Of a stretch of DNA of 6,081 bases, positions 1 to 6,081 are shown one piece after another; position 1 is the first letter of the stretch; the number at the start of each line of letters is the position of its first letter. This DNA comes from a virus, in the IMG/VR virus record IMGVR_UViG_3300020026_000006, positions 1-6,081 of that record; one strand, written 5' to 3'. A program made the translations under genes and the position numbers. The notes beneath the pieces are model-generated. The model was not told the origin of the DNA, did no database searches, and saw only the letters and a program-made list of their open reading frames with translations.

Positions 1-121
1 CTGCTGTACCCAATAAGAGTAAAGATTAGGCAAATTCTGATTAGAATTAACCGCGGAAATCTGTCCCAAAACCTCATCATAAGAAGACCTAAATTCATTA
101 AAACAAGGCTCCTGCGCAAAC
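1..121. repeat. Left copy of the exact 121-nt terminal direct repeat (circular-assembly overlap)
   Basis: Base-by-base comparison shows 1..121 (ctgctgtacccaataagag...ctcctgcgcaaac) is identical to 5961..6081. The repeat lies inside the capsid ORF and preserves its reading frame. Confidence 0.97.
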
Positions 122-1620
122 GATAAATTAGCCTCAACGGTCGGAAGTTTACTAAAGCGCCAATTCGGAACACGCTGATAACCGATATCATTATAAATAG
201 GATTGAAATAATCAGGTCCTTCGTAATTTAAATAATCCGGCCGAACACCACTCCAATAGTAAACAGGTCGAACGCTCAACATATCAATCATATAGCCGGG
301 CTCTCGGAAGTAATAAGATTGACGACGACCCAAGCGATCATTAAAGGCAATTGCACCACCCTGCTGGCCAAGGGGCTGGTTGTTGCCAAAATTATTATCA
401 CCGGCTTGATTCATAACAATTTGAACATTGACTGTCTGTGAAGCAGAAAACAAAAGTTTAGGTCGGTCAACATGCTCGATTTTGGAGGCAAAGAAGGTCT
501 CCAGCCAATCGCTGTAACGACTACCACCAGCACCCAAAAGATCCTTATACTCTTGAAGACGAGAAGCAATAGCCAACTGCGGAATTGTATCAACGCCAGA
601 CATAGATACGGCCGATCCAGAACCAATAGGAAGAAGACGACTAAAACGATCGGGATTCGCCGGAATAACCGCAATAGGGTGAGCGATATTAAAAACAATC
701 GAATTTTGCAAACCCTTGGAATCATCGCGACCAGAAAACTGATCAGTCGGAGCGATGGAGCCCATCAAAGAATAAGCACTCGAAACAGCAACAACGGGGT
801 AACCGTCACCATTCGCGCCGGCAGCAGAACCAGTAGATTCGATATCCGAACGGATGATTTGATCAAAAAGATTGCGACGGTTGTAGGTATTATTCGAAGA
901 AGGTACAGCAGAAGGATAGAACTGACTCTCAAAATAAGCATCGAGGTGCTCCAAATTACCATAACGCTGAACAAAGAACGAGTCATTTCCCGGATCGTTA
1001 AATTCGTAAGTAATGGAACTTCCGGAAGTTGCGGCGGACGTGTAATACCAGGAGGCGGGCCAAGCGAAAGAATAAAGTCCCCACTGGGAATAACCGTAAT
1101 AATTTCGAACGATGTCCCAGTAAGCTAAATAAGTATCAGCGTTAGCCCACTGAATAGGGGAAGTACCAGCAGGAAGCGAACCGCCGGGAGAAGCGGTAGC
1201 GTTGGTAAAATTAATAGAACGATTGGACACCCGAAGCCAATAAAGAAGCGAGTTTGTAAAAGGAGCGGAAACAGAAGGTTTAGCGCCGGCACCGGCAGAA
1301 CCAGGCAGAGCAGGAATCCAATTCAAGCTCAAATCGTTCATGTCGAACTTACTGCTATTTGTCCGCAGCTCAGGATGATACAGCTGAAGAGGCACCCAGA
1401 AACGATGCAAACGAATAGTGTAGGGGTTGAATGTTGGGACAGCGAGGGGGTTGCTACGAACGTCAATGCCTTGCTCGATAGACACACGATCCCGGGCATT
1501 AATAAAATCGATCCGCACCGGATATAAAATACCCGGTGTGCACGTAAAGGCCTTGCTCTCAGGGACATCGTATCGAGAGTAGCCATTTACAGCGTGTGAA
1601 ATAAAAGGTTGTTTTCCCAT
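1..1620 (-). CDS. VP1: Major capsid protein (Microviridae F/VP1 family), 5' part: codons 1-540 of 603. It continues across the circular junction into 5960..5769.
   Basis: The gene is missing from the ORF track because it has no in-window stop. I translated the minus strand by hand from ATG 1620..1618 and found no stop in any of the 540 codons down to position 1. The N-terminus reads MGKQPFISHAVNGYSRYDVPESKAFTCTPGILYPVRIDFINARDRVSIEQGIDVRSNPLAVPTFNPYTIRLHRFWVPLQLYHPELR. Later blocks include LAYWDIVRNYYGYSQW and LLGAGGSRYSDWLETFFASKIEHVDRPKLLFSAS. From memory, not from a search, these resemble conserved blocks of microvirus capsid proteins. The ATG lies 3 nt downstream of the Rep stop. Confidence 0.93.
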   Translation of the reverse strand, partial: MGKQPFISHAVNGYSRYDVPESKAFTCTPGILYPVRIDFINARDRVSIEQGIDVRSNPLAVPTFNPYTIRLHRFWVPLQLYHPELRTNSSKFDMNDLSLNWIPALPGSAGAGAKPSVSAPFTNSLLYWLRVSNRSINFTNATASPGGSLPAGTSPIQWANADTYLAYWDIVRNYYGYSQWGLYSFAWPASWYYTSAATSGSSITYEFNDPGNDSFFVQRYGNLEHLDAYFESQFYPSAVPSSNNTYNRRNLFDQIIRSDIESTGSAAGANGDGYPVVAVSSAYSLMGSIAPTDQFSGRDDSKGLQNSIVFNIAHPIAVIPANPDRFSRLLPIGSGSAVSMSGVDTIPQLAIASRLQEYKDLLGAGGSRYSDWLETFFASKIEHVDRPKLLFSASQTVNVQIVMNQAGDNNFGNNQPLGQQGGAIAFNDRLGRRQSYYFREPGYMIDMLSVRPVYYWSGVRPDYLNYEGPDYFNPIYNDIGYQRVPNWRFSKLPTVEANLSFAQEPCFNEFRSSYDEVLGQISAVNSNQNLPNLYSYWVQQ

Positions 1621-1623
1621 AAA

Positions 1624-2694
1624 TTAAATGTTTAGTTGGAGTTTATAGTGGTCTCTCCAAAATTGGAGAATATCCAAATCTAGCCACGTCGGGGGGTCAA
1701 AGTCAGGCATCCTACGAGAGGAGGCAGAGAATCGCATTATTTGCTTCTGTTCCCACATATACGACGCTCTACGGGATACGGAGGAATTGAGGTTGAACCG
1801 ATCAATACACAGAGACACGATACGCTTAACCAGAGGAGACTTGCTGAAACGTGAATAAGAATCAGCAGAGGTAATCGAGCGAACAACGTCGTCTTCCGGT
1901 TCAAGGTATCTAAGATAATACCGAGGAATCGAGTAGTTATAATTGATACGCTTCTCAAAATCAAAATAAGACCACGACGAAGTACGGGAAGAAGGGCGAG
2001 GCATATGGCCAAGAAAATCACCAACGCCAGCAGATACGAATTTTCGCGTATAACGGCGATGTTGGAGGAGGCAAGATAAAGGTGTAGACTTTCCATCTAA
2101 AACGATATTTTGATCGGATATTTCTGCAGGGTTAAATTGAATTTGCTTAGTAACGTATTTGACGACGTATCGCGCACGCTTATGCGTGCCTTTCGCAAGC
2201 CAAACAAAACCAAGGTCACGGACAGCCGATCGAATATCATTGTATAAACAATCGGTGCCAAAGAGAAAACCGTGGAAGTGAAGACGTGGCGCCGATCCTG
2301 TTTCTGGATGGGTGCCAAACTCCTGGAAAAACGCATGTTTAAAGGAGTGGCCGATCTTATGACGGATTCGCTCATTCCATCGTCGGATAAACTTAGAAGG
2401 ATCTCGCAATGCTTCATCGTAGTACTTCGGTGATATAGTTATTGTAATAAAAATAGCCTGCCGAGACTCGGCTTTACAGCGAGCAAGCTCGCGCTCTAAG
2501 CGAACGAACCAATCATTGCGTTGACGACGCAGGCAGTCTTCGCATTTTCCGCAGGGTACCATAAGCCACTGACGGGCGATATCCCAGGGGCGGAGGGCCA
2601 ATGCGGATTTAGCGACATCGGAGCCATTACGACAGGGGTTCTTCTTGTCAAAATAACGACGATTGCGTATCCATATAGGCGACGAGCAGGGCAT
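1624..2694 (-). CDS. VP4: Rolling-circle replication initiator (HUH endonuclease, Microviridae VP4 / phiX174 gpA-like), 356 aa
   Basis: ATG at 2692..2694 and TAA at 1624..1626. The N-terminus MPCSSPIWIRN and the cysteine cluster VPCGKCEDCLRRQRNDWFVR (2533..2553 region) are typical of VP4. Motif I is IFITITIS (2431..2451). The HUH motif is RLHFHGFLFG (2260..2283). Motif III has two tyrosines, YVVKYVTK (2146..2169), compared with YVAKYVNK recalled for phiX174 gpA. Confidence 0.95.
   Translation of the reverse strand: MPCSSPIWIRNRRYFDKKNPCRNGSDVAKSALALRPWDIARQWLMVPCGKCEDCLRRQRNDWFVRLERELARCKAESRQAIFITITISPKYYDEALRDPSKFIRRWNERIRHKIGHSFKHAFFQEFGTHPETGSAPRLHFHGFLFGTDCLYNDIRSAVRDLGFVWLAKGTHKRARYVVKYVTKQIQFNPAEISDQNIVLDGKSTPLSCLLQHRRYTRKFVSAGVGDFLGHMPRPSSRTSSWSYFDFEKRINYNYSIPRYYLRYLEPEDDVVRSITSADSYSRFSKSPLVKRIVSLCIDRFNLNSSVSRRASYMWEQKQIMRFSASSRRMPDFDPPTWLDLDILQFWRDHYKLQLNI
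1675..1701 (-). promoter_or_regulatory. Weaker Bacteroides-type promoter-like motif inside the 3' end of Rep, upstream of the capsid gene
   Basis: The coding strand has TAGATTTG (plus 1675..1682 = caaatcta) 54 nt upstream of the capsid ATG, and a TTTG (plus 1698..1701). The spacer is only 15 nt, shorter than I recall as typical. Confidence 0.2.
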
Positions 2695-2894
2695 TACATC
2701 AGACTTTGAAGACAGTCAAATTTAACCCGAGGATGATCACGACGACAGCGGGCAAGATAGTCTTTCGCGGAGACGTGGTCGGGAAACCAGGCGATAACGA
2801 CACGCCTTCTACCGCGGTATGCGCCAATGGAAAAACGGAAGGACGAACTACCAACAATAGGTGAAAACTTGGGTCTAAAATCGAAATAATCCAT
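2694..2894 (-). CDS. Small basic protein (66 aa) translationally coupled to Rep; function unknown, possibly DNA-binding
   Basis: ATG at 2892..2894. Its TAA (2694..2696) overlaps the Rep ATG by 1 nt (TAATG on the coding strand). The sequence is rich in Arg and Lys (RGRRR, ARCRRDHPRVK). I recognise no homolog. The ORF sits at the 3' edge of the structured non-coding region. Confidence 0.55.
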   Translation of the reverse strand: MDYFDFRPKFSPIVGSSSFRFSIGAYRGRRRVVIAWFPDHVSAKDYLARCRRDHPRVKFDCLQSLM

Positions 2895-2904
2895 GATTAA
2901 AAAG

Positions 2905-2995
2905 ATTAATATACGCTTCGAAAGACGGTACTTTCGAGCGCGAAAACTGTTGCGTTACGCCGCTCGACGGCCTAACGGCCGGGACGCTTCGCGTC
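2905..2995 (-). promoter_or_regulatory. Cluster of short GC-rich stem-loops plus an AT-rich box, directly upstream of the 66-aa/Rep/capsid gene string; candidate origin or priming signal
   Basis: Three stems can be read directly. The first is tcgaaag (2918..2924) / ctttcga (2931..2937) with a 6-nt loop. The second is cggcc (2968..2972) / ggccg (2977..2981) with loop taac. The third is gacgc (2983..2987) / gcgtc (2991..2995) with loop ttc. The coding strand then reads GCGTATATTAATC (plus strand 2905..2912 = attaatat). The motif acgcttcg occurs twice (2913..2920 and 2984..2991). Confidence 0.4.
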
Positions 2996-3030
2996 TTCGA
3001 GCTCCATGGCTCCACTCCACAAACTATATA

Positions 3031-3044
3031 CCGAATAAATTCGG
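3031..3044. repeat. 14-nt palindrome ccgaat-aa-attcgg in the non-coding region
   Basis: Read directly: 3031..3036 ccgaat is the reverse complement of 3039..3044 attcgg. It could be a protein-binding site or a tight hairpin. Function is unknown. Confidence 0.5.
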
Positions 3045-3054
3045 TGAGTTTGAG

Positions 3055-3092
3055 AACAAAAACTCCCAGGGGAGAGAAGGCTCCCCTGGGGG
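3055..3092 (-). terminator. Intrinsic (rho-independent) terminator downstream of the 107-aa ORF
   Basis: There is a perfect 10-bp GC-rich stem, cccaggggag (3065..3074) / ctcccctggg (3081..3090), with a 6-nt loop (3075..3080). On the coding strand the stem is followed immediately by AGTTTTTGTT (plus strand 3055..3064). No T-run follows it on the plus strand, so its orientation matches the gene strand. It begins 47 nt after the stop at 3138..3140. Confidence 0.7.
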
Positions 3093-3137
3093 CCTCATAG
3101 TTAAAGAACTCTTCCACCAAGCGGGCGGGTAACAACC

Positions 3138-3461
3138 TTAGTTCCCTTTCCCTTCTTCTTCCGTCGCGCCTTCATCGTAGTTAAGATCAAAATCAAACAT
3201 GAGAACCATTGTATTATCAAAGAATTCGATGGCGAAACCAGGAAAATCTCCACAGGCGGCAATAAGATCGACTACTTTCGGGTGGTAAACGTAGAGTGAA
3301 TCGCTAATATCCGATTTCTCGAAGAAACGCGCAATAGGAGTGTTCGCGACGGCGCCGAGGGGCAGCGGATCAAACTGACCATCCTTAAAACGACCTATCT
3401 GAGCAAGGTCAACCTTGAGGGCCGGATTAACTCGCCGAATAACAACATGAATCTGTGTCAT
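3138..3461 (-). CDS. Hypothetical acidic protein, 107 aa (orphan accessory ORF)
   Basis: ATG at 3459..3461 and TAA at 3138..3140. It starts 11 nt after the upstream ORF stop. The C-terminal tail is acidic (FDFDLNYDEGATEEEGKGN). It resembles no core microvirus protein that I recognise. Confidence 0.62.
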   Translation of the reverse strand: MTQIHVVIRRVNPALKVDLAQIGRFKDGQFDPLPLGAVANTPIARFFEKSDISDSLYVYHPKVVDLIAACGDFPGFAIEFFDNTMVLMFDFDLNYDEGATEEEGKGN

Positions 3462-3472
3462 AATAATGTGAT

Positions 3473-3793
3473 TTAAAATTTTACTTGAAGTTCATCGCAA
3501 AAACGCTCCCAAGCAGCATTCTGCTTACCCCAAAATTCAACACCTTCGGGTGTCGAAACAAATGGAAACGAAGAGGTAATAAGACTGCTCGGGCCAAAGC
3601 TGAAATCGTAAAGAGAGTGTCGAATCTGGGAACGCAAGCGTTCACGGAAACTCCTATAAGGCATAAAACTACGTTCGTAGTTCGCCTTAAAAGCTGCAAA
3701 TATTCCTCGATCAACAAGCCACGCGATGAATGCGTACTCTACAACGTCAATCAACAGCTTTTTGTTTTTAATGCTTTTGCTAGACTTTTTCAT
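3473..3793 (-). CDS. Hypothetical protein, 106 aa (orphan accessory ORF)
   Basis: ATG at 3791..3793 and TAA at 3473..3475. The N-terminus is Lys-rich (MKKSSKSIKNKK). The C-terminal segment SFPFVSTPEGVEFWGKQNAAWERF is aromatic/Trp-rich and looks like a folded small domain. It is the first gene after the promoter-like motif. Confidence 0.65.
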   Translation of the reverse strand: MKKSSKSIKNKKLLIDVVEYAFIAWLVDRGIFAAFKANYERSFMPYRSFRERLRSQIRHSLYDFSFGPSSLITSSFPFVSTPEGVEFWGKQNAAWERFCDELQVKF

Positions 3794-3819
3794 GGTAGTA
3801 TGGTTATTGGTTTACAGTA

Positions 3820-3850
3820 CAAATATACAGCAAAAAGGACAAGCAACAAA
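3820..3850 (-). promoter_or_regulatory. Candidate Bacteroides-type promoter (-33 TTTG / -7 TAnnTTTG)
   Basis: The coding strand reads aacTTTG-ttgcttgtcctttttgctg-TATATTTGtac. TTTG corresponds to plus 3847..3850, the spacer is 19 nt, and TATATTTG corresponds to plus 3820..3827. The -7 box ends 26 nt upstream of the ATG at 3793. It lies in the 83-nt gap after the VP2 stop. The consensus is recalled from the Bacteroides fragilis promoter literature. Confidence 0.4.
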
Positions 3851-3876
3851 GTTCAAAAGGTTGGAGAAATTGTTCA

Positions 3877-5133
3877 TTATTTCCCAGAATAACTACGACG
3901 GGTGTAGATACTGCCGTTCTTATCGCCGTAGGGGCTGTAAATCTCCTTCACCTCTTCATAGCCTTCCGGGCCGGTAGGACCAGCAGCCTTACGACTAGCG
4001 TAGGCAGCACCGGCAACACCTGCAGCAGCAGCAAAGGAGCGAATAATGTCATGACCAAGACGAAGCCTAGAATTGCGCAAATCCCAACGAGTATTACCGA
4101 CTTCAAGTTGAGCGGCTTCAGCAGCAGCAGACTTCAGAATAGACGTAGTCTCAGCAACTTTCATCATCTTAGTCTCGACGACTTCACCTTTATCATTGCG
4201 AATCTGGACAGGCACTTCTTTCTCCCAGTTAAGCTCGAACCATTTCTGCATATCCTTGAGTTCTTGGTAGTTAAGCTTCATCCGAGACTCGGACTCGGCG
4301 GCAGCGGACATGTTAGCAATAGCCGAAGACCAAGCGACAGCAAGCGCAGCACCGGCTTCGGGCTCAAACCAATCATTAGTTTTGCGAAGATTCTGGTACT
4401 TTTCCTCCAAAATGCCGGCCATAGCCATGATAGAAGACATCTTGTAACCTTGAGTAATATTGGATAAATAGGCGTCAATTGCAACGATTTGAGCCTGCGC
4501 CTCACGAAGGTTGGCGAGCTCACGAGCATCCTTAACCTGATGTTCGGCAATCTGCAACTCAAATTTATCCATTCGTTCTCGCCACTCTAGCGAATGAGTA
4601 TTACCTCGAAGATTAGCGGCTTCTGCATCATCTCGGTTGGCGGCAGCGGCATTGCGATCAATCGTGGATTGTGCAACCATGTTTTGAGCGATAGAGGTAG
4701 GATCAGCAGGGGCAAAACCACCAGGAGCGATCGGGGAGCCACCCGAAGGACCAGAGGCAGACGGCATGGACGCAGAACCACCTGACATAGTGGCATTTAC
4801 ACCGACGCCAGAAGAGCCTAGGACAGCAGCAGGCGTCACGCCGGCCTTCAGGTAACGATCGAAAACCTTCGAAGGATCATTGTAGGAATTTTCGTAATCA
4901 AACTGTCTCTGCCAATTGGCGTAGGAAAGCTCGGACTGTTTTTGCATTTGCTCTAAAGCGTACTTCTGTTGAAGAGCCATTTGTTTTTGCTGAAATCTCC
5001 ACTGACGGCGAGCGTTCATACCTCCAAAAAGCTGACCGAGGGCGCCGGTAATTAAACCCGTAGAAGCGGTAGACGCAGCCGACTGGCCAAGAGCCTGGCC
5101 AAAAGATGCGGCAGCAGCAGCAGGAATAGGCAT
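3877..5133 (-). CDS. VP2: Minor capsid / DNA pilot protein (Microviridae VP2, functional analogue of phiX174 H), 418 aa
   Basis: ATG at 5131..5133 and TAA at 3877..3879. The N-terminus is Ala/Gly-rich (MPIPAAAAASFGQALGQSAASTASTGLITGALGQLFGG). It is followed by a Q-rich helical segment and YNDPSKVFDRYLKAGVTPAAVLG, which resembles the ...R...AGLNP..L block I recall from VP2 proteins. Long Ala/Glu/Gln helical stretches follow. Size and position are typical of the second-largest structural gene. Confidence 0.85.
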   Translation of the reverse strand: MPIPAAAAASFGQALGQSAASTASTGLITGALGQLFGGMNARRQWRFQQKQMALQQKYALEQMQKQSELSYANWQRQFDYENSYNDPSKVFDRYLKAGVTPAAVLGSSGVGVNATMSGGSASMPSASGPSGGSPIAPGGFAPADPTSIAQNMVAQSTIDRNAAAANRDDAEAANLRGNTHSLEWRERMDKFELQIAEHQVKDARELANLREAQAQIVAIDAYLSNITQGYKMSSIMAMAGILEEKYQNLRKTNDWFEPEAGAALAVAWSSAIANMSAAAESESRMKLNYQELKDMQKWFELNWEKEVPVQIRNDKGEVVETKMMKVAETTSILKSAAAEAAQLEVGNTRWDLRNSRLRLGHDIIRSFAAAAGVAGAAYASRKAAGPTGPEGYEEVKEIYSPYGDKNGSIYTRRSYSGK

Positions 5134-5134
5134 A

Positions 5135-5326
5135 CTACAAATGAGTTAAATTATTAGAACGAATGATGTAATCAACGCGAACAGTGTCAATATGAACGCC
5201 ACTACGTTGCATCCTAGCTTGAGCCGAACAGGAAGAGAGGAAAAAAGCAGCCAATGCAGCAACAATAGATGAAACGAGCGTCCAAAAAGCTTTTGACTTA
5301 TAGAAGGGTTGCTTAACGTCTGACAT
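5135..5326 (-). CDS. Small secreted/membrane protein with a lipoprotein-type signal peptide (63 aa from the internal ATG; the track ORF extends to an upstream ATG at 5437, giving 100 aa)
   Basis: From ATG 5324..5326 the sequence is MSDVKQPFYKSKAFWTLVSSIVAALAAFFLSSC-SAQARMQRSGVHIDTVRVDYIIRSNNLTHL. It has a Lys-containing n-region, a ~17-aa hydrophobic core, and L-S-S-C at residues 30-33, which fits the lipobox pattern [LVI][ASTVI][GAS]C. The TAG stop (5135..5137) is 1 nt from the VP2 ATG. The sequence upstream of this ATG is A/T-rich (ctttaatttttaatacc), like the other starts. The alternative ATG at 5435..5437 adds 37 Arg-rich residues that span an inverted repeat, so I favour the shorter form. 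Confidence 0.55.
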   Translation of the reverse strand: MSDVKQPFYKSKAFWTLVSSIVAALAAFFLSSCSAQARMQRSGVHIDTVRVDYIIRSNNLTHL

Positions 5327-5350
5327 GGTATTAAAAATTAAAGAACGATA

Positions 5351-5429
5351 GAAAAATGCGCGGCCTCTCCTGCAGTCGTTACCAATAACCTCTAGAAATT
5401 CACGAACTCTTCCAAGAGGGGTCCGCGCA
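5351..5429 (-). promoter_or_regulatory. Imperfect long-range inverted repeat followed by a T-run (terminator-like or regulatory structure) between the 98-aa ORF and the lipobox ORF
   Basis: tgcgcgg+cctct (5357..5368) pairs with agagg (5415..5419) and ccgcgca (5423..5429), leaving a 3-nt bulge. On the coding strand the 3' arm is followed by TTTTTC (plus 5351..5356). The enclosed loop is ~46 nt, and competing small hairpins exist (for example ctctt/aagag at 5407..5418), so this is not a canonical terminator. Confidence 0.3.
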
Positions 5430-5459
5430 CGTAGCATATATCGTCAAGTAAAGGATATA

Positions 5460-5756
5460 CTATTTTTCTTCAGGATTAGGAGGTGTCGAGGAAGGTTTTG
5501 ACATATCAAGCTGAGAATCAATAAGTTCCTGACCGACCTCGAGACCGTCAAACTTATCCATACGGGAAAACGAATTAGGGTCGAAATCAATTTCGGGATT
5601 GAACCTCTCACCCTTATCGAAGTCCGAGGATGAAACCTCCACATCCGGACGACCGGGAAGAACGTCAACAGAGCCAGAACCGTCGAGAACGGAAAGAATC
5701 TGCTGACCGCGAGAAATATATTCAGGAGTATCTTCTAAAAACCAATCAAGTGCCAT
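5460..5756 (-). CDS. Highly acidic, probably disordered 98-aa protein immediately downstream of the capsid gene; possible scaffolding-type protein
   Basis: Coordinates are from the ORF track. The TAG stop is at 5460..5462, and the start lies ~12 nt after the capsid stop. The sequence MALDWFLEDTPEYISRGQQILSVLDGSGSVDVLPGRPDVEVSSSDFDKGERFNPEIDFDPNSFSRMDKFDGLEVGQELIDSQLDMSKPSSTPPNPEEK is very rich in D/E/S/P. I recognise no similarity to gokushovirus VP3. The scaffold idea rests only on position and composition. Confidence 0.6.
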   Translation of the reverse strand: MALDWFLEDTPEYISRGQQILSVLDGSGSVDVLPGRPDVEVSSSDFDKGERFNPEIDFDPNSFSRMDKFDGLEVGQELIDSQLDMSKPSSTPPNPEEK

Positions 5757-5768
5757 AAAATCAATATA

Positions 5769-6081
5769 TTAGCGATTAGACAAACGGGTAGCAAAAGTTT
5801 TATTCACCAAATTCTTTTTCTGAACCGCATAGGAGAGATTTACAAAAAAATTATCCTCTAAGTTCGAAGAAAAGGGAGAATTTACCTGCGTCATATCAAC
5901 AAAAAGAGCCGGCGCGTAACTCTCCGAAGAAGGCCAGTTTGAAGACCAATTTAAATAGCGCTGCTGTACCCAATAAGAGTAAAGATTAGGCAAATTCTGA
6001 TTAGAATTAACCGCGGAAATCTGTCCCAAAACCTCATCATAAGAAGACCTAAATTCATTAAAACAAGGCTCCTGCGCAAAC
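5769..6081 (-). CDS. VP1: Major capsid protein, 3' part. 5769..5960 holds the unique final 63 codons plus the TAA stop; 5961..6081 duplicates 1..121.
   Basis: The track ORF 5769..6029 is in the same frame as the 1..1620 ORF through the repeat (6029-5960=69, and 69 and 1620 are both multiples of 3). Its listed initial M is a TTG (caa at 6027..6029) internal to the capsid sequence ...SSYDEVLGQISAVNSNQNLPNLYSYWVQQRYLNW.... The TAA stop is at 5769..5771. Confidence 0.92.
   Translation of the reverse strand, partial: FAQEPCFNEFRSSYDEVLGQISAVNSNQNLPNLYSYWVQQRYLNWSSNWPSSESYAPALFVDMTQVNSPFSSNLEDNFFVNLSYAVQKKNLVNKTFATRLSNR
5961..6081. repeat. Right copy of the exact 121-nt terminal direct repeat (circular-assembly overlap)
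   Basis: Identical to 1..121. It reaches both window ends exactly, as expected for a circular contig cut at an arbitrary point. Confidence 0.97.

Follow-up and report, generated by a model that had tools for sequence, protein, structure and literature searches.

A 63-codon open reading frame (ORF) predicted to encode a small prolipoprotein was identified on the minus strand of the window, which here means the whole 6,081-nucleotide stretch of DNA analyzed (positions 1 to 6,081 of IMG/VR virus record IMGVR_UViG_3300020026_000006). By its substitution pattern among related genomes, this ORF is a genuine gene under strong purifying selection, and by its distribution it is a core gene, universal in its clade of microviruses. 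It is the best candidate for the function by which Bacteroidales microviruses leave or shield their host. Its most likely role, proposed tentatively by analogy with colicin-release lipoproteins, is the lysis of the host or release of progeny through envelope damage. The family is classed among the small phage- or plasmid-encoded envelope-acting lipoproteins; as far as the searches reached, it is without homology to known lysis or exclusion proteins and had previously received just one automatic "lipoprotein" label.

The full ORF (5437..5135, minus strand) comprises 100 amino acids, and an in-frame internal ATG (5326..5324) gives a product of 63 residues, MSDVKQPFYKSKAFWTLVSSIVAALAAFFLSSCSAQARMQRSGVHIDTVRVDYIIRSNNLTHL. 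The stop codon TAG (5137..5135) is separated by a single base from the ATG (5133) of the gene for the pilot protein VP2; from this spacing only, translational coupling of the lipoprotein gene to VP2 seems likely. The capsid gene is not the immediate neighbor, as the 98-amino-acid ORF98 (5756..5460) and a structured element of about 120 nucleotides (nt) intervene. Coding statistics were drawn from 83 collected related loci. Column entropy by codon position was 16/8/68 in the 63-codon part, where nonsynonymous diversity (pN) was 0.078, synonymous diversity (pS) was 0.61, and the ratio of nonsynonymous to synonymous rates (dN/dS) was 0.066. The half encoding the signal region (dN/dS, 0.049; pS, 0.60) combined a low dN/dS with high synonymous diversity, which indicates that the constraint acts on the protein and not on the DNA; dN/dS was 0.081 in the half encoding the mature part. 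The synonymous diversity of 0.61 further indicates that constraint from a second frame is absent, so that the gene is not overprinted and occupies its own slot between ORF98 and VP2. Among 80 IMG/VR contigs chosen by capsid alone (VP1 68 to 85% identical to that of the window), the gene was found in 77, and the remaining 3 were linear and broken exactly at this position, leaving 77 of 77 informative genomes with the gene. An earlier note, made from the window alone, had proposed a small membrane-targeted product encoded at this place and had suggested purifying selection and syntenic homologues as the means of checking it; both the dN/dS and the distribution show the short form to be a real gene.

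The amino acid sequence has the parts expected of a lipoprotein precursor, as the earlier note had described them: a basic n-region, a hydrophobic region, the lipobox LSSC, and a basic mature peptide of about 31 residues are seen in the sequence. The n-region (M-S-D-V-K5, plus K10 and K12) is followed by the hydrophobic helix AFWTLVSSIVAALAAFFL. Compared with a PROSITE PS51257-type rule, K5 supplies the Lys or Arg within the first seven residues after Met, residues 13 to 32 form an uncharged hydrophobic region (18 to 20 residues, longer than is typical), and the lipobox [LVI][ASTVI][GAS]C with a Cys between positions 15 and 35 is present as LSSC with Cys33. The net charge of the mature part is about +2. 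Of 76 ATG-started frames of at least 30 amino acids in the window, this one was the sole match to the lipoprotein pattern, and at least one match was found in 6% of mononucleotide-shuffled windows. Among 188 distinct 63-residue sequences, Met1 was present in all, K5, K12, and Cys33 were each present in 187, and G43, H45, D47, T48, V49, D52, R56, and S57 were present in all. The lipobox was LASC in 103 of these sequences, LSSC in 78, and LTSC in 3, with four others, three of which ended in Cys. When distinct sequences of any length were considered, 188 of 190 fitted the standard lipoprotein pattern. The Cys was invariant in all 32 distant representatives, and the position before it was always G, A, or S in the distant homologues that aligned there. 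Surface lipoproteins of Bacteroidota bear acidic residues right after the Cys; this acidic surface-export motif is absent after Cys33.

An AlphaFold2 model from a 32-sequence alignment (overall predicted local distance difference test [pLDDT], 82) placed a helix at residues 8 to 32 (pLDDT about 95) and strands at residues 35 to 42 and 50 to 57, in which the mature core G-V-H-x-D-T-V...R-S forms a beta-hairpin. Mean identity across 32 diverse representatives was 70% for residues 11 to 32 (consensus SKKFWTLVAAIVAALxAFF) and 36% for the mature part. The hydrophobic helix is thus conserved about twice as much as the mature peptide, and the helix itself probably matters. The mature part occurs in at least two types, GVHIDTVRVDYIIRS and SGDTTRTTITYEQIG, and three homologues (P0149, P0160, and P0166) have a different hydrophobic region with the same Cys and mature peptide. 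Because either part can be exchanged while the Cys is kept, both halves seem to matter, with the Cys as the fixed point, an arrangement that seems to fit a processed lipoprotein with an active signal peptide. The second mature type was also observed as TARHYVVQSASSIKSGDTTRTTITYEQIGNFKRP, after the same conserved signal and Cys, in loci L085 (1347..1544) and L086 (1486..1683); in both, the gene sits in the same slot, between the structured element and VP2. Sequence and profile searches of Pfam, NCBIfam, PHROGs, and PDB gave no match for the lipoprotein, with no Pfam family at an E value of ≤10. The best Foldseek match for the 63-residue model (E value, 1.6) is meaningless for a helix plus a hairpin, and PADLOC matches to the candidate-defense protein PDC-M02A, covering the lipobox and hairpin (residues 27 to 61; E value, 0.017) and found also for homologue P0133 (E value, 0.003), were judged too weak to use.

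The upstream 37 codons of the 100-residue frame (5437..5327) were without codon periodicity (entropy, 8.4/7.9/10.0), with a pS of 0.15, compared to 0.61 next door, and a dN/dS of 0.47. Low synonymous diversity without periodicity indicates that DNA or RNA is constrained here and not protein. The long form was broken by a stop, frameshift, or insertion in 16 of the 83 relatives: a stop lies immediately upstream of the internal ATG in 11 and the upstream ATG is lost through a frameshift in 3, which removes the upstream start in 14, and insertions of 10 or 32 codons lie between the two parts in 2. In MG945680, the interior of the element is replaced by unrelated sequence with both flanks retained, and in MG945509 and PQ006896, element and gene are up to about 150 nt apart, the PQ006896 record annotating the short form only (65 amino acids). 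On these comparisons, the 100-residue form is an artifact of reading through a conserved structured noncoding element. The earlier note had also speculated that starts at 5437 and 5326 give two products, of 100 and 63 residues, with two topologies, loosely as in a holin/antiholin pair. The window and 67 of the 83 relatives do keep the long frame open, and gene callers give 100-residue products. Nevertheless, unlike the upstream start of a dual-start holin, the one at 5437 lies in a noncoding structured element, the apparent amino acid changes are compensatory base changes in its helices, and the interior of the element can be replaced or separated from the gene. The dual start is refuted by this comparison and retains next to no probability.

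The structured element begins with the 5' flank CCTTTACTTGACGATATATGCTACG and ends with the 3' flank TCTATCGTTCTTTAAT, which runs to the ATG. Its G+C-rich outer stem pairs 5428..5420 with 5365..5358 (GCGCGG.CC with GGCCGCGC) and is accompanied by an inner hairpin (CCTCT.GGAA, an 11-nt loop, and TTTC.AGAGG), a small third hairpin, and a T-run at 5356..5352. The block 5472..5335 was the only DNA that megablast still found (about 86% identity) in some diverged microviruses. Substitutions in the upstream extension of the frame correspond to compensatory base changes, such as CCTCT/AGAGG, CCTTC/GAAGG, and CCTTT/AAAGG, GCAA/TTGC and GCGA/TCGC, and GCGCGG/CCGCGC and GCGCGA/TCGCGC. Across 66 distinct sequences, 98.9% of cells were paired, and 66 cells had double changes, compared to 17.8 ± 6.8 in shuffles (observed value reached in 0 of 500), while slid controls were only 35 to 45% paired. 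An alternative, mutually exclusive extension of the outer stem was also 98.9% paired, by way of G-U wobbles, with one clearly covarying pair (21-65), and the element may switch between two folds. Single-sequence folding of 5320-5480 was nonsignificant (z score, -0.9 as RNA and -1.4 as DNA), and the evidence for structure therefore comes from covariation. A simple terminator scan, restricted to loops of 3 to 8 nt, missed the hairpin of the element. Rfam gave no family for the whole window at an E value of ≤1, and ARAGORN gave no tRNA or transfer-messenger RNA in the window, so the upstream hairpin is not tRNA-like. We read the element as a probable brake on transcription of the lipoprotein and VP2 genes, in the manner of a terminator or attenuator; it may also be a replication signal. 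A rolling-circle origin at ACTTGACGATAT in the 5' flank, considered by comparison with the phiX174 origin, CAACTTGATATTAAT, is only a possibility, as the sister lineages lack the motif. G+C-rich insertions of 30 to 150 nt that form hairpins separate the structured element from the start of the lipoprotein gene in loci L020, L030, L042, L049, L056, and L071 (around 1600 to 1700), L086 (1340..1480), L004, and L021, and may represent a small mobile or duplicated hairpin.

Homologues formed 430 clusters at 90% identity in a protein search and 55 clusters at 50% identity in an exhaustive profile-free search of 1.84 billion representatives. The gene was found in just 30 of 50,697 phage records, all of them microviruses from animal feces. 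Its position varies by lineage: it precedes VP2 in some and VP4 in others, or sits between VP4 and VP1. One homologous locus, L167, is a microvirus prophage in Alistipes montrealensis kh20 (NZ_JAGYXY010000001.1, about 131.2 to 136.7 kb), and a second reference prophage bearing the family is from an uncultured Alistipes. L167, together with L168, L087, L088, L089, L092, L093, L172, and L173, is flanked by bacterial genes; several of these prophages adjoin the same helix-turn-helix regulator gene, and in the prophages the lipoprotein gene comes first after the attachment region or junction. The host group is likely Rikenellaceae (Bacteroidales), as these integrations suggest. Existing annotation of the family is sparse. 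The third-party record DAU60727.1 ("MAG TPA: lipoprotein [Microviridae sp.]") belongs to the same family (90% identical over the 100-residue call), but its label is automatic, is placed on the 100-residue form that includes the noncoding element, and has no function attached. Gene callers generally report this 100-residue form. The gene was without an annotated feature in 11 of the 30 GenBank matches, and most other records were hypothetical or unannotated. An apparent fusion of lipoprotein and VP2 in MG945680-type records was rejected as an annotation begun in the wrong frame: the "similar to VP2" feature of MG945680.1 (L170; 1602..3230) crosses the lipoprotein gene from a misplaced, out-of-frame start.

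Roughly one-half of the distant clusters consisted of proteins of 180 to 220 residues, in which the lipoprotein N terminus is followed by some 110 residues that are not conserved and are rich in S, T, L, F, and P and then by the conserved basic end RRGGRRGKPRPKxKxIPLGGSHL. Such long forms were found at L084 (1512..2114), L087 (2432..3025), and L167 (6977..7585), and further at L088, L089, L090, L092, L093, and L112. Their middle overlaps a gene of 120 to 140 codons in another frame, with an ATG start. Pairwise differences per long-frame codon position were 2/2/7 and 6/0/17 in the N terminus, 3/13/5 and 4/26/6 in the middle, where the excess falls on the third position of the embedded gene, and 0/0/6 and 2/1/10 in the tail. 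These counts place selection on the long frame at the two ends and on the embedded frame in between. The open long frame is weakly significant per genome (open in 31 to 47% of synonymous shuffles) and recurs in many lineages. About 15 moderately hydrophobic residues precede the tail, and it might be speculated that the long form has a lipid-anchored N terminus, a periplasmic linker, and a cytoplasmic tail. The basic motif is a separate 24-codon ORF in the clade of the window, where it overlaps the acidic end of a 107-amino-acid ORF; in size and pattern, it recalls the J proteins of phiX174-like phages, which are small, basic, and DNA binding. Homology of the gene embedded in the long forms to ORF106 (E value, 0.98) or ORF107 (E value, 0.028) of the window was only weak.

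Lysis or release of progeny is preferred as the role of the small prolipoprotein because it best accounts together for the universality of the gene, the lack of a recognized endolysin, the fixed Cys, and the conservation of the helix. An essential envelope role is favored over an accessory exclusion role by this conservation and by the universality. We infer the processing, topology, expression level, and lysis role of the protein as follows. Translation from the ATG at 5326 would yield a 63-residue prolipoprotein, whose basic n-region and helix of 18 to 20 residues would enter the inner membrane by the Sec pathway with the N terminus inside. Cys33 would then be lipidated and signal peptidase II would cut before it. 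One product of the cut would be a basic lipopeptide of 31 residues, a beta-hairpin on the periplasmic side, and the other would be the 32-residue transmembrane signal peptide, which is so unusually conserved that it may well persist and be active in its own right. Expression would probably be low and late, since transcripts from the capsid gene and ORF98 must read through the terminator-like element. No peptidase, endolysin, holin, or other small membrane protein was recognized among the window ORFs scanned, and the earlier note's choice of this small membrane-targeted product as a candidate for exit or protection stands, as it is the only such product recognized in a genome without a recognized endolysin.

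The closest parallels are colicin and bacteriocin release proteins (pCloDF13 bacteriocin release protein and Lysis_col), which are also very small prolipoproteins with a mature lipopeptide of about 28 to 33 residues; the precursor in the window has 63 residues and the predicted mature part has 31. Nothing in this architecture recalls an endolysin. The signal peptide of the release proteins is reportedly stable and itself functional (van der Wal 1994/1995, in the reference list of PMC5727409); the signal region is the best-conserved part of the window's protein (70% versus 36%). Under the release reading, both would damage the envelope without a muralytic enzyme. The release proteins are plasmid encoded and enterobacterial, whereas the window's protein is virus encoded, belongs to Bacteroidota, and has a longer signal peptide (32 residues), and Lysis_col had no Pfam match to it even at an E value of ≤10. 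Spanins (the o-spanin Rz1 and T1 gp11) are comparable in being small phage proteins that bear a lipoprotein signal of the outer-membrane type, and the long forms of the sister lineages, with a linker of about 110 residues, a hydrophobic stretch, and a basic tail, recall a unimolecular spanin. However, only 31 residues follow the Cys in the window's protein, which is without a partner or C-terminal anchor, the genome is without a recognized holin or endolysin for a spanin to complete, and the long forms have near their C terminus only a short and marginally hydrophobic stretch.

Several observations weigh against lysis or release. The hydrophobic region is long for a lipoprotein signal (18 to 20 residues, with the Cys at 33) and could be an uncleaved anchor, and no sequence or fold similarity to any lysis or release protein was found. 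The quasi-lysis caused by release proteins needs an outer membrane phospholipase in Escherichia coli, of which a counterpart in Alistipes is only a possibility. The position of the gene, first after the attachment site in prophages, is typical of exclusion genes expressed by lysogens, and the fusion of the N terminus to a J-like tail in sister lineages is not what a pure lysis role predicts. A more elaborate scheme, which we regard as rather doubtful in its entirety, would make this the missing lysis system of Bacteroidales microviruses and a novel type of single-gene lysis: the prolipoprotein would give two active pieces, the conserved transmembrane signal peptide and the 31-residue beta-hairpin lipopeptide, read-through of a switchable structured terminator would set their dosage, and the form of the sister lineages with the J-like tail would span the envelope and couple genome packaging to exit.

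Other roles were weighed against the same evidence. Were the protein a factor for superinfection exclusion or receptor masking, a lipopeptide in the inner leaflet of the outer membrane would bind a receptor (for example, a TonB-dependent transporter), block new infections, and stop inactivation of progeny on debris, as T5 Llp does with FhuA (PMC9586334; bioRxiv 10.64898/2026.03.26.714494). We consider this role unlikely. The protein is, like Llp and Cor, a small phage lipoprotein predicted to face the periplasm; its gene adjoins the receptor-binding and entry module (capsid and pilot genes) and, in the prophages of Alistipes and others, is the first to follow the attachment site. A changing target would also lead one to expect different mature types behind one signal, of which at least two unrelated-looking ones occur. 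As a rule, however, exclusion genes are accessory, whereas this gene was present throughout the clade (77 of 77 informative relatives); its signal peptide, the part to be discarded, is the best conserved, and the mature core GVHxDTV is near-invariant across genomes with strongly differing capsids. No similarity to the Llp or Cor families was found in Pfam, PHROGs, or PDB sequences or with Foldseek (best E value, 1.6). The mature part of T5 Llp has 61 residues, and that of the window's protein (31 residues) is half its size. Equally, it seems improbable that the product is an uncleaved single-pass protein whose helix is the effector, either as an inhibitor of cell wall synthesis, as with phiX174 E and MraY, or as a depolarizing pore, with another role for the conserved Cys. 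The helix is 70% conserved, with an invariant K12, W15, and F29 and a small-residue face (SSxxAAxAA), and its hydrophobic stretch is long enough to span a membrane fully. The C-terminal part can be exchanged, as its different peptide types and extensions of about 140 residues illustrate, and the C-terminal domain of phiX174 E is similarly replaceable. E is also a small microvirus membrane protein in which the N-terminal helix is best kept and the C-terminal part is variable and basic, and phiX174 has no endolysin, just as none was recognized in the genome of the window. On the other hand, an invariant Cys that always follows G, A, or S, with an uncharged stretch before it, matches the signal peptidase II signature exactly, and the three homologues with a changed helix retained the Cys and the mature peptide. 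The window's protein further differs from E in its lipobox Cys, in a charge pattern that places the N terminus inside, and in a helix without a conserved Pro such as P21 of E; E is overprinted inside another gene, while this gene has its own slot, and the E lysis family had no Pfam, PHROG, or NCBIfam match to the window's protein.

The long forms of the sister lineages raise a further explanation, to which we give a small chance, namely an accessory in morphogenesis or genome handling that acts with VP2 and the J-like peptide as a membrane tether for replication, packaging, or entry. The N terminus is in frame there with the J-like tail RRGGRRGKPRPKxKxIPLGG, both ends are selected around an overprinted middle, the stretch of about 15 hydrophobic residues before the tail fits a stop-transfer topology with the tail in the cytoplasm, and the gene in the window abuts VP2. 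In the clade of the window, however, the two parts are separate genes 2 kb apart, the J-like peptide with its own ATG; the openness of the long frame is weakly significant per genome, as given above, and a lipid-anchored periplasmic peptide would be without obvious access to cytoplasmic procapsids. Finally, the ORF might serve mainly as an upstream frame that feeds ribosomes to VP2 by termination-reinitiation, with the peptide unimportant, as the one-base gap to the VP2 start and the lack of a Shine-Dalgarno sequence for any window gene would allow. This is very improbable, since a dN/dS of 0.066 with saturated synonymous sites shows that the peptide sequence is selected, and the family persists at positions away from VP2.

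Microviruses other than the phiX174 group are among the commonest phages of the mammalian gut, and how they lyse their hosts is an open question. Microvirus diversity papers agree with the earlier note that, sporadic M15 peptidases excepted, established lysis genes are confined to the phiX-like group, and literature searches found no paper describing a microvirus lipoprotein. The 63-codon gene provides a concrete and universal candidate, and the cultured A. montrealensis kh20, which carries a related prophage, provides a tractable entry point. A lytic product would amount to a new small protein antibiotic directed at the envelope of Bacteroidota, whereas an exclusion factor would lead to the receptor that these phages use. 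Database annotation, in which 100-residue calls include a noncoding element and many records miss the gene, is also corrected by the comparison, which further exposes two conserved structured noncoding elements as candidate regulatory or replication signals. The features of the window are listed in Table 1.

Table 1. Features of the 6,081-nt window and the evidence for them
Feature	Position	Strand	Evidence
Small prolipoprotein gene, short form (63 codons + TAG)	5326..5135	-	ORF, third-position variation, synteny
Putative signal-peptide/transmembrane part, residues 1-32	5231..5326	-	AlphaFold2 helix, conservation, dN/dS 0.049
Lipobox L-S-S-C, residues 30-33 (Cys33 codon TGT, 5230..5228)	5228..5239	-	
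Predicted mature 31-residue basic lipopeptide, CSAQARMQRSGVHIDTVRVDYIIRSNNLTHL	5138..5230	-	Conserved core, AlphaFold2 strands
Conserved structured noncoding element	5335..5454	-	Covariation, DNA conservation
Pilot protein VP2	5133..3877 (start codon 5131..5133)	-	PHROG pilot-protein family matches
Acidic 98-amino-acid ORF (ORF98)	5756..5460	-	
Major capsid protein VP1, 603 amino acids	1620..1 then 5960..5769, across junction	-	
Replication initiator VP4	2694..1624	-	
24-codon basic ORF with own ATG, MKARRKKKGKGTKVVTRPLGGRVL	3175..3101	-	Conserved in about 45 relatives
Two ORFs of about 106 amino acids (ORF106, ORF107)		-	
66-amino-acid ORF adjoining VP4		-	

A 121-nt direct repeat is present at the ends of the window (1..121 and 5961..6081), which indicates that the window represents a circular genome of 5,960 nt. 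All recognizable genes are on the minus strand, and VP4 lies immediately upstream of VP1, an order described for Bacteroidales proviruses of the Alpavirinae type. No Shine-Dalgarno sequence was found before any gene of the window, where the upstream regions are A/T rich. The nearest GenBank records were unclassified Microviridae from feces of pig, deer, civet, rodent, and lemur, about 80% identical to the window in VP1 and VP4 only. Judging from the Alistipes prophages and the genes without Shine-Dalgarno sequences, the host is a Gram-negative member of the Bacteroidota, and by relatedness, the virus is a member of a Bacteroidales-associated, Alistipes-type, Alpavirinae-like clade of microviruses. 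ORF98 (5460..5756, minus strand), which had no family match, is kept in relatives as MxLDWLLED..YxSRG..xSVLDGSGSVD...FDPNSFSRMDKFDGLEVGQELIDS and may encode a scaffolding-type protein.

A second noncoding region was observed at 2915..3100 (minus strand), starting right after the 24-codon ORF. It opens with a perfect 10-bp hairpin and a T-run, followed by several further hairpins, and its fold had a z score of -4.66, with equally good folds in 0 of 200 shuffles. The ORFs listed at 2893..3132 (plus strand) and 2875..3135 (minus strand) are probably artifacts of its conservation. The region is a candidate origin or attachment region. It is 90% identical to that of L084, whose lipoprotein-family ORF is only about 40 to 45% identical, and a compensatory change relative to L084 was found within it (ACCGAAT/ATTCGGT against ACCGAAC/GTTCGGT).

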